A stretch of 24,000 nt of DNA from Olavius algarvensis associated proteobacterium Delta 3 (GTDB lineage: Bacteria; Desulfobacterota; Desulfobacteria; Desulfobacterales; CAFBRK01), in assembly GCA_903231505.1 (NCBI GenBank), contig CAFBRK010000074.1, forward strand, positions 6,640-30,639, written 5' to 3'. Position 1 is the stretch's first letter; every line of letters begins with the position of its first letter. Under the pieces are notes generated by a model. That model was given only the letters and a program-made list of their open reading frames with translations. It was not told where the DNA came from and did not search any database. Position numbers and translations under genes: made by a program. Of this stretch, positions 9,819 through 11,453 are shown piece by piece.

Positions 9819-11129
9819 ATGAAACCTGACTTTCCCCAAGAATCACTCATCACCGAAGACTGCTGCGCCACTTCGAAACCCCTTTGTGAGGGTTCCCCAG
9901 CGAATCCGGGGGGTGATGCGGGTGATCCCTGTTGCGGCGGTCCCCCGCAGGAATCCTTCATCACCGGAAACTGCGGCGCCACGTTGAAATCCGCTTGCGA
10001 TTGTTTGCCGGCTGATCCGACCGGTGACACGGATGAAGTCTGTTGCGGCGGCCCCCCGCCCCCCAAAACCAGTCCCTATGACAAGCCCGGCTACCGGGTG
10101 CAGCGGTTCGTGGCGGAGTTTATCGGCACTGCCGTGGGCCCTGTTCCCCGGATCCATTCCCAATGGGGGGTGGCCGACCGGTTCGGTACGATCCTCACCC
10201 GCCTGGGCGTCGGGCGACACGACTACCGTGTGGCTCCTGGAATTTACTCGGTCGGCCATCCCGATGCGGAAGCACCGGTGGTGGTCACGGCAAATTTCAA
10301 ACTGACGTTCGACACGGTGCGACGGGATCTCAACGGGCGGGACCTATGGCTGCTGGTGCTGGACACCCATGGCATCAATGTCTGGTGTGCTGCGGGGAAA
10401 GGAACCTTTTCCACCCGGGAAGTTATATCCCGGGTAAACACGAGCGGTCTGGCCCATCTGGTCCAGCATCGAAAACTGATCCTGCCGCAGCTTTGCGCAA
10501 CGGGCGTATCCGGCCGGGACGTAAAAAAAGGCTGCGATTTCGAAGTCGTCTGGGGCCCGATACGGTCAAAAGATATCGTTCCATTCCTGGATCAGGGGAT
10601 GACCGCGGACGACACCATGCGGCGAGTGACATTTTCCTTTATGGAACGGCTGGTACTGATACCGGTGGAACTGTCCTATCTGCCCAAACCGACGCTGTGG
10701 GTGCTTCTCGCGGCGTTCATCATCTCCGGCATCGGCCCAAGTATTTTTTCCATCCAGGGGGCCCTGTTGAGGGGCGGCATGGCGATGGCCGCCTATCTTG
10801 TCGGAGTGATCGCCGGTGCTGCGTTGGTACCCGCACTTCTGCCCTATCTTCCGGGACGGGCCTTTTCCGTCAAGGGCGCCATCACGGGCGTGGTCGCCGG
10901 CGCGGTGGTCGCGTTGTTCTTTTCCTGGCATACAAACGGCTGGGGCATGGTCGGTTTAATACTCTGGTCCACCGCCATCAGCTCCTACCTGGCCATGAAC
11001 TTTACCGGATCCACGCCGTTTACATCTCCATCCGGGGTAGAAAAAGAAATGCGCCGGGCCATCCCGATTCAGGCCGCATCAGCCCTGGCTGCAGTGGCGG
11101 TATGGATTACTTCAGGGTTTATCGCTTAA
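9819..11129 (+). CDS. hgcA: HgcA, corrinoid protein of the mercury methylation system (CFeSP-like corrinoid-binding domain + C-terminal ~5-TM domain), with a Cys-rich N-terminal extension
   Basis: The diagnostic cap-helix motif GINVWCAAGKGTFS is encoded at 10371-10412, with Cys codon TGT at 10386-10388. The hydrophobic C-terminal third contains several predicted TM helices. A small ferredoxin gene follows immediately. ATG 9819 is preferred over the track's GTG 9807. Confidence 0.93.
   Translation: MKPDFPQESLITEDCCATSKPLCEGSPANPGGDAGDPCCGGPPQESFITGNCGATLKSACDCLPADPTGDTDEVCCGGPPPPKTSPYDKPGYRVQRFVAEFIGTAVGPVPRIHSQWGVADRFGTILTRLGVGRHDYRVAPGIYSVGHPDAEAPVVVTANFKLTFDTVRRDLNGRDLWLLVLDTHGINVWCAAGKGTFSTREVISRVNTSGLAHLVQHRKLILPQLCATGVSGRDVKKGCDFEVVWGPIRSKDIVPFLDQGMTADDTMRRVTFSFMERLVLIPVELSYLPKPTLWVLLAAFIISGIGPSIFSIQGALLRGGMAMAAYLVGVIAGAALVPALLPYLPGRAFSVKGAITGVVAGAVVALFFSWHTNGWGMVGLILWSTAISSYLAMNFTGSTPFTSPSGVEKEMRRAIPIQAASALAAVAVWITSGFIA
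9837..10058 (+). repeat. In-frame tandem duplication (2 x 111 bp = 2 x 37 aa) encoding Cys-rich units inside the 5' end of hgcA
   Basis: Unit 1 is QESLITEDCCATSKPLCEGSPANPGGDAGDPCCGGPP (9837-9947). Unit 2 is QESFITGNCGATLKSACDCLPADPTGDTDEVCCGGPP (9948-10058). The period is exactly 111 nt, shown by conserved strings caRgaatc and gttgcggcgg at the same offsets. Confidence 0.85.
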
Positions 11130-11159
11130 CTCGAGATTGAGGTATAGAAAGGTCCTTGT

Positions 11160-11453
11160 ATGAAAGAGTTCCGATATCTTCCCGATGTGACGACGCTGAA
11201 ACTGGATCGGGAGTTGTGCATCGGGTGCGGCATTTGCCATCTGGTCTGCCCCCATGGGGTGTTTGAACCGGATGGAAACGTCATGGAGATTGTCGATTTG
11301 AACGGATGCATGGAATGCGGCGCCTGTTCCCATAATTGTCCGGTCGATGCGATCTCCGTAAACCCGGGTGTCGGGTGTGCCTCCCTGATCATCAATACCT
11401 GGCTCAAGGACAAAAGGATCACGAAAAGTTCCGGAGGCGGGTGTTGTTGCTAG
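11160..11453 (+). CDS. hgcB: HgcB, 2x[4Fe-4S] ferredoxin partner of HgcA
   Basis: 97 aa. Two CX2CX2CX3CP motifs (CIGCGICHLVCP, CMECGACSHNCP), an additional Cys at residue 73 (GVGC), and a C-terminal GGGCCC tail. It starts 30 nt after the hgcA stop. Confidence 0.92.
   Translation: MKEFRYLPDVTTLKLDRELCIGCGICHLVCPHGVFEPDGNVMEIVDLNGCMECGACSHNCPVDAISVNPGVGCASLIINTWLKDKRITKSSGGGCCC

Follow-up and report, generated by a model that had tools for sequence, protein, structure and literature searches.

The DNA analysed here, hereafter the window, is a stretch of 24,000 nt from Olavius algarvensis associated proteobacterium Delta 3, the sulfate-reducing endosymbiont OalgDelta3 (contig CAFBRK010000074.1 of assembly GCA_903231505.1, positions 6,640 to 30,639). 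It carries the gene pair hgcA-hgcB, preceded on the same strand by an arsR2-type regulator gene. The two Hgc proteins are supported as true members of the mercury-methylation family. With a probability of about 0.85, arsR2, hgcA and hgcB are read as a three-gene mercury-methylation module whose chemistry and regulation would be those of its homologues. The pair had already been recognised in an earlier reading made without database searches (the sequence-only reading), and the positions given there for both open reading frames and for the codon of Cys190, as well as the 30-nt gap between the genes, proved exact at every coordinate checked. The features of the pair are as follows.

9819..11129, plus strand: hgcA, corrinoid methyltransferase of mercury methylation, 436 residues (match to NF040863 over residues 109-434)
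11160..11453, plus strand: hgcB, ferredoxin with two [4Fe-4S] clusters, 97 residues (match to NF040864), with Cys73 and a C-terminal CCC
10377..10400, plus strand: cap-helix signature NVWCAAGK of HgcA, residues 187-194, with the Cys190 codon at 10386-10388, read from the sequence
10683..11114, plus strand: transmembrane domain of HgcA, five helices, residues 289-432, from an AlphaFold model and hydropathy

The frame of hgcA runs from the ATG at 9819 to the stop codon TAA at 11127-11129 and is closed upstream by an in-frame TAA at 9780. A GTG at 9807 was considered as start codon and rejected in favour of ATG 9819, because the proteins of relatives begin with MKPDFP at the ATG. HgcA contains GINVWCAAGKGTFS, the codon of Cys190 being TGT, and all eight residues of NVWCAAGK are invariant in an alignment with 31 homologues. 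By analogy, Cys190 of the cap helix is the proposed axial ligand of Co. The downstream gene, hgcB, is a separate reading frame in the same direction, not fused to hgcA; among 80 related loci, 78 have hgcB immediately 3' of hgcA. As the sequence-only reading had described, its product is a 97-residue ferredoxin with two CX2CX2CX3CP cluster motifs (C20-x2-C23-x2-C26-x3-C30-P and C50-x2-C53-x2-C56-x3-C60-P), Cys73 (codon TGT) and the terminal residues C95-C96-C97.

Family membership was determined with the curated equivalog hidden Markov models of NCBIfam, the cut-offs of which are 275 bits for HgcA (NF040863) and 99 bits for HgcB (NF040864). HgcA matched its model with 440.2 bits (E 4e-132; model positions 1-324 of 325) and HgcB with 119.9 bits (E 3e-35), both far from what chance would give. 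The scores of HgcA against the two paralogue models lay below their cut-offs, with 212 bits against 285 for the HgcAB-like fusion model and 83 bits against 306 for the gamma subunit of CFeSP, the corrinoid/iron-sulfur protein. The identification in the sequence-only reading, which had named a paralogue-like score as the outcome that would speak against it, was thereby borne out. In Pfam, the pair matched only CdhD (PF03599) and Fer4 domains.

An AlphaFold model of HgcA built with 31 homologues (mean predicted local distance difference test score, pLDDT, of 77) comprises a Rossmann-like corrinoid domain with a helix at residues 188-194 that carries Cys190, followed by five C-terminal helices of high pLDDT (289-303, 312-343, 349-367, 374-398 and 404-432) with which the hydropathy peaks concur. 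The order of a soluble domain and a multi-helix membrane domain had been correctly predicted; the membrane region had been placed at residues ~270-437, where five helices are indeed found, but it starts near residue 289 and the protein ends at residue 436. The best match of the model among PDB entries in Foldseek was 9a0b_A, the integrative model of HgcAB from Pseudodesulfovibrio mercurii ND132 (E 9e-26; 52% identity between the modelled ND132 chain and HgcA of the window). Corrinoid domains and large subunits of CFeSP followed. Taken together, the identity of HgcA and HgcB is supported because the curated models are passed, the paralogue models fail and the fold matches the HgcAB model of ND132.

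The ND132 system (DND132_1056/1057; Parks et al. 2013) resembles that of the window in several respects. Its HgcA combines a corrinoid domain with an NVWCAAGK cap helix and five transmembrane helices, its HgcB is a separate ferredoxin with two [4Fe-4S] clusters, and an ArsR2-type regulator (DND132_1054 type) lies directly 5' in the locus. The cysteines of HgcB even carry the same numbers in both organisms (20, 23, 26, 30, 50, 53, 56, 60 and 73, plus the vicinal C-terminal cysteines). The cap-helix cysteine is residue 190 in the window and residue 93 in the ND132 protein as originally annotated.

The sequence search of PDB with HgcA matched CFeSP domains. The large subunit of CFeSP (AcsC; 2H9A, 2YCL, 4C1N, 4DJD) shares with HgcA the Rossmann-like corrinoid domain and cap helix, and the similarity to HgcA residues 136-259 is evident from both sequence (E 2e-13) and structure (Foldseek E 7e-9). 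In contrast to HgcA, CFeSP lacks the cap-helix Cys ligand, the transmembrane domain and a Cys-rich tail, and its partners are a small subunit and a methyltransferase, not HgcB.

Public records describe the pair in general terms. HgcA is 100% identical to CAB5095378.1/CAB5164459.1, named 'Similar to carbon monoxide dehydrogenase corrinoid/iron-sulfur protein', and HgcB is recorded under CAB5095391.1 as 'Ferredoxin [Olavius algarvensis associated proteobacterium Delta 3]'. Generic annotation had been expected to yield just such names, which was literally true; they arise because Pfam detects only the CdhD and Fer4 domains. The identical HgcA occurs on eight contigs from independent assemblies, one of them in GCA_903231395.1, the metagenome-assembled genome (MAG) of OalgDelta3 announced by Sato et al. 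(2020) in a paper that does not mention mercury. The novelty implied by the sequence-only reading was overstated, given that dedicated models exist and that Podar et al. (2015) reported hgcAB from O. algarvensis, in an uncultured endosymbiont of the deltaproteobacteria that their text does not specify further. The genes studied here are a known system and at most an under-annotated member of it, and hgcAB in a marine sulfate reducer is no surprise to a specialist.

Three elements that the sequence-only reading did not mention are the N-terminal ~90 residues of HgcA, the ArsR2-type regulator and a palindrome upstream of the latter. The first of these is listed below.

9819..10088, plus strand: Cys-rich disordered tail of HgcA, residues 1-90, ten cysteines, with two tandem units of 111 nt (37 residues)

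The match to the HgcA family model starts at residue 109, and the first ~90 residues fall outside it. Cys, Pro and Gly abound in the tail, and pLDDT is below 50 for residues 1-78. Direct comparison revealed two adjoining units, residues 7-43 (9837-9947) and 44-80 (9948-10058), which align in register without gaps at 74% identity over 111 nt and 57% at the amino acid level. Three vicinal cysteine pairs are present, namely C15-C16, C38-C39 (9930-9935) and C75-C76 (10041-10046), the second being the duplicate of the third, so that the tail contains two CCGGPP sites. Tandem Repeats Finder did not report the 111-nt duplication in the tail, because the units are too diverged.

The nearest relatives of HgcA (82% identity, from other gutless-worm metagenomes) possess a single 37-residue unit, orthologous to unit 2; their protein of 399 residues compares with 436 residues in the window. 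A strain variant with 98% identity also has the duplicated tail and retains every Cys, while five of its nine substitutions relative to HgcA of the window fall within the first 63 residues. The duplication is real and maintained, since it is found on the eight contigs from independent assemblies and, with all cysteines, in the variant.

A Cys-rich tail is present in all of the best 120 database homologues, nearly all of which end it with (D/E)xVCCG.PP.P...E(K/R)PG. In the 31-sequence alignment C75 is invariant, and C76 and G77 are conserved in at least 90%. According to Haft & Gwadz (preprint; J Bacteriol 2023), in most HgcA proteins, including that of ND132 and GSU1440, the reading frame continues upstream past a UGA codon, which yields a conserved PCUGP motif with Cys and selenocysteine (Sec; CU), and other HgcA proteins have CC. 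This pattern was reproduced in a survey of 79 loci from species-representative genomes. In the column of C75-C76, which precedes the PGY at the start of the core by 14 residues, CC was found in 46 of the 79 loci and Cys followed by an in-frame UGA in 19, as for example in Desulfovibrio caledoniensis (APCUGPKPDPRAGVFEKPGYAVEPFV). Judged by this column, C75-C76 of the window is homologous to the published CU/CC site.

A selenoprotein reading of the present copy was rejected, as hgcA and hgcB contain no in-frame UGA and the frame is closed upstream by the TAA at 9780. The tail of the window is the all-Cys form (VCCGGPP) with the CC module doubled, and it is longer than that of ND132, whose HgcA is a proposed selenoprotein with the PCUGP extension and which does not share the internal duplication. 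Seven HgcA tails of the Desulfuromonadales type bear three to five CCPP repeats and up to 11 Cys; from their sequences, these appear to be a different, parallel multiplication of the vicinal-Cys module. A literature search on a cysteine-rich N-terminal tail of HgcA found nothing relevant.

In selenoproteins in general, alternation of Cys and Sec marks a chemically active residue. This alternation, together with the analogy to the C-terminal CC of HgcB and to the vicinal cysteines of mer proteins, suggests that the tail is a flexible arm that handles Hg(II) or CH3Hg+. The mer proteins (MerA with a C-terminal CC, MerT with a CC) likewise have flexible, adjacent cysteines beside a catalytic or transport site, although they share no sequence homology with the HgcA and HgcB arms and detoxify Hg rather than methylate it. 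Cooper et al. (2020) liken the tail of HgcB to these mer cysteines, and CU occurs in some MerT proteins (Haft & Gwadz).

The regulator and the region preceding it comprise the following features.

9461..9760, plus strand: arsR2-type metalloregulator gene of the ArsR/SmtB family, 99 residues (NF033788, PF01022), with Cys21, Cys42-x-Cys44 and Cys81-x-Cys83
9364..9391, plus strand: promoter-like site for arsR-hgcAB, TTGACG (9364-9369), 16-nt spacer, TATATC (9386-9391)
9382..9404, no strand assigned: candidate ArsR2 operator, an imperfect palindrome of 23 bp (11-1-11), ATCGTATATCG-A-CGATTAACGAT

The ArsR protein scored 72 bits against NF033788 (cut-off 55) and also matched PF01022; its gene ends 58 nt before hgcA. 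Comparison of positions showed that Cys 21, 42, 44, 81 and 83 correspond to C26, C47, C49, C86 and C88 of ND132 ArsR2, shifted by five. Where classical ArsR has a CVC-x2-C site, the protein thus has a four-Cys site, made up of two CxC pairs, and a further N-terminal Cys; C42, C44 and C83 are retained in 30 of 31 homologues. Among the 70 loci with enough upstream DNA, 27 have an ArsR homologue immediately 5' of hgcA and in the same orientation. ArsR2 of ND132 is co-transcribed with hgcAB and controls these genes, responding to arsenic and S-adenosylhomocysteine (SAH) and not to Hg.

The palindrome overlaps the -10-like TATATC and ends 56 nt 5' of the arsR start codon. Overlap of a palindrome with the -10 region is a classic repressor geometry. 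Both the TTGACG block and the palindrome are identical in the 82%-identical relative L007 (the palindrome also in L008), where the surrounding spacer and flanks have diverged. A version with up to six mismatches was found just 5' of arsR in 21 of 31 arsR-hgcA loci, including those of Desulfosarcina cetonica, D. caledoniensis and a Nitrospirales MAG; by comparison, 298 of 300 random control pieces of 260 nt required at least eight mismatches. The ends of the palindrome, ATCGT and ACGAT, are invariant in all 21 sites. On these grounds the palindrome is predicted to be a candidate ArsR2 operator, and a promoter-like site is inferred at 9364-9391. The preprint on ND132 ArsR2 mentions neither operator, promoter nor palindrome, and the palindrome may for this reason be an undescribed detail. 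A generic promoter and terminator scan found no plus-strand promoter, and none of the gaps between arsR, hgcA, hgcB and lysE showed a convincing terminator; the site at 9364-9391 was not called by the sigma-70 scan because its -10 hexamer ends in C.

The loci of the closest relatives, Delta3-type symbionts of gutless worms (P0002-P0004; L007 and L008), share this operator sequence and the surrounding gene order (RACo, EamA, rhomboid, MoxR, DUF58, TgpA, ArsR, HgcA, HgcB, LysE). They differ from the window in their intergenic distances. In L007 the arsR-hgcA spacer (9760-9940 region) measures 258 nt and contains short tandem repeats of the CTTGAACC/CTCGAAC-like type, whereas the 58-nt spacer of the window lacks these, and the hgcA-hgcB spacer of L007 and L008 is 187 nt long as opposed to 30 nt.

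Family membership, architecture, motif homology and the conservation of module and palindrome are observed at the locus and serve as the basis for the following proposed mechanism. HgcA would be anchored in the membrane, with a cobamide held in its cytoplasmic Rossmann-like domain and Cys190 as the lower axial ligand. HgcB would dock on HgcA, and its two [4Fe-4S] clusters would relay low-potential electrons to give Co(I). Methylation of Co(I) by S-adenosylmethionine (SAM) would yield CH3-Co(III), from which the methyl group would be transferred to thiol-bound Hg(II) to form CH3Hg+. Vicinal-Cys arms, i.e. the C-terminal CCC of HgcB with Cys73 and the N-terminal CC of HgcA (C75-C76 and the duplicated C38-C39), may bring Hg(II) to the cofactor and remove CH3Hg+ by thiol ligand exchange. 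Transcription of arsR-hgcA-hgcB would start at the promoter 5' of arsR and would be repressed by a dimer of the four-Cys ArsR2 bound to the 23-bp palindrome over the -10 region.

Work with homologues is the source of this scheme wherever it concerns the binding of cofactors, the chemistry, the regulation or the formation of methylmercury in the worm. In vitro, the ND132 enzyme uses SAM as methyl donor, Co(I)-HgcAB is methylated and electrons arrive via HgcB (Zheng et al. 2024); methyl-tetrahydrofolate had been proposed earlier as the donor. Homologues bind cobalamin as well as [4Fe-4S] clusters (Cooper et al. 2020), and the same authors summarise mutagenesis of HgcA C93 and of HgcB C73 and C94/95, by which HgcA C93 and HgcB C73 plus at least one C-terminal Cys are required.

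A further proposal concerns the tail as an arm for the acquisition of soft metals, in which a loss of reactivity upon replacement of Sec by Cys would be offset by multiplied vicinal-Cys modules, in the window through the tandem 37-residue unit and in Desulfuromonadales through up to five CCPP repeats, with the conserved candidate ArsR2 operator as a second handle. It is best regarded as speculative and fairly doubtful. If true, it would provide two new testable handles, the duplicated CC tail at the Cys-Sec site for the route of Hg(II) to the cobalamin and the conserved palindrome 5' of arsR for how hgcAB is switched on.

Several points weigh against the reading as a mercury-methylation module with an Hg-handling tail and a promoter-operator 5' of arsR. 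At the tail, 13 of the 79 surveyed loci have neither CC nor CU in the column of C75-C76, and the site therefore seems dispensable in some lineages; moreover, a role of the tail in Hg handling is putative. The -10 hexamer TATATC is weak and was not called by the generic scan. With respect to function, methylation is poorly predicted by how abundant hgcA transcripts are, in ND132 hgcA is not induced by Hg, and the native function of HgcAB is disputed, links to arsenic and to halomethane dehalogenation having been proposed. Finally, methylmercury production by this uncultured symbiont would follow by extrapolation from the genes. The sequence-only reading had predicted that the organism produces methylmercury; the gene pair behind that prediction is genuine, but the step from genes to production was overstated.

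The disputed native function leads to the alternative that has most in its favour, in which a true HgcAB would perform another physiological job (halomethane dehalogenation, or an arsenic- or SAM/SAH-linked methyl or redox step) and Hg methylation would be a side reaction. This is possible, though rather unlikely. According to a preprint, heterologous HgcAB dechlorinates CCl4 with a Vmax much above that of Hg methylation. The response of ArsR2 to arsenic and SAH rather than Hg points in the same direction, as do the increased As(V) sensitivity of an hgcAB knockout and the association of an ArsR2-type regulator and a conserved candidate operator with hgcAB in many lineages. The dehalogenation claim, however, comes from that single preprint, and the window contains no ars or dehalogenase genes. 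A soft-metal substrate is indicated instead because vicinal Cys/Sec arms occur on both HgcA and HgcB. Furthermore, another native job accords with all that was observed here and does not contradict a capacity for methylation; both may hold.

It is clearly improbable that hgcAB is silent or impaired in the obligate symbiont, either because the tail duplication interferes or because expression in the host is lacking, and that no methylmercury is formed. Such a view could invoke the fast evolution of the tail between strains and the loss of one Cys from each unit in the window strain, C25G being the change in unit 1. Yet both reading frames are intact on the eight contigs and on six more (independent assemblies, two strain variants), which argues against decay. 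The core of HgcA is strongly conserved, as seen from its nearly full-length model match, and all catalytic residues are present in hgcAB. As for the duplication itself, maintenance rather than decay is indicated because both CCGGPP sites and the reading frame have been kept at 74% nucleotide identity.

The idea that a non-methylating paralogue (of the CFeSP/CdhD type or a relative of the HgcAB-like fusions) lies beside a generic ferredoxin, to which the Pfam domains and the sequence-level PDB matches to CFeSP might point, is effectively refuted by the failure of the paralogue models alongside the passing HgcA and HgcB models, by the presence of a cap-helix Cys, transmembrane domain, Cys73 and C-terminal CC, all missing in CFeSP, and by the separation of the two genes.

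To our knowledge, hgcAB is the only genetic determinant of microbial methylmercury formation. If the three genes act as a mercury-methylation module, a complete, intact and regulator-equipped hgcAB in an obligate endosymbiont that lives beneath a marine worm's cuticle implies that methylmercury may be formed within animal tissue and may enter coastal food webs directly, an idea raised for O. algarvensis in 2015. The public OalgDelta3 records under-describe both genes. Beyond this annotation, the additions are modest and consist of the duplicated CC module at the Cys/Sec site, the recognition of the ArsR2-type regulator and the conserved candidate operator; the current understanding of the mercury-methylation system is not changed by them.

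Genes outside the module were inspected as well. In a scan of the whole window at gathering scores, no Rfam family was detected, cobalamin riboswitches included. A RACo-type protein is encoded at 1166-2749 (plus strand), 7 kb 5' of hgcA. It comprises a linker domain, a middle domain and a C-terminal ASKHA domain but apparently lacks the [2Fe-2S] domain at the N-terminus. Proteins of this type are reductive activators of corrinoid proteins, and the one found here may serve CFeSP, HgcA or both. Its gene is syntenic in the 82%-identical relative and was not seen in the fetched flanks of 80 more distant hgcA loci. A LysE/RhtB exporter gene (11526-12164) follows hgcB and also neighbours hgcAB in the 82%-identical relatives, compared with none of 80 distant loci. 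Because adjacency to hgcAB is limited to the closest relatives in both cases, the exporter and the RACo-like activator were rejected as parts of the module and are regarded as lineage synteny. Within the 72 nt that separate hgcB from the LysE-family gene, an 18-nt tandem repeat, AAATGCCTAAAACGCCGA (11481-11521), is present in 2.3 copies.

Directly 5' of arsR, the genes of a MoxR AAA+ ATPase, of a DUF58 protein and of a TgpA-like transglutaminase are clustered (4815-9223, plus strand), an arrangement shared with the relative. In several assemblies (L007, L089 and L090), gene calls give the last of these genes as split or truncated reading frames. Between the TgpA-like gene and arsR, at 9252-9341, a large imperfect inverted repeat of TCGGNA/ATCGGT hexamer-like repeats was noted (27-nt arms 93% and 34-nt arms 82% complementary); it is absent in the relative L007 and may be a terminator or an element resembling repetitive extragenic palindromes.

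Farther downstream, an operon of the Psr/Ttr/Arr type at 17494-22481 (plus strand) encodes a molybdopterin oxidoreductase exported by twin-arginine translocation, together with a TorD-like chaperone and two further subunits, one with 4Fe-4S and one an NrfD-type membrane protein. Genes for a HAMP-containing sigma-54 activator (14472-16514) and a phosphonate-type binding protein of an ATP-binding cassette transporter (13308-14312) lie in front of it. The operon is a candidate for an arsenate or polysulfide-type reductase close to the ArsR-controlled hgcAB, and as such is worth a look.

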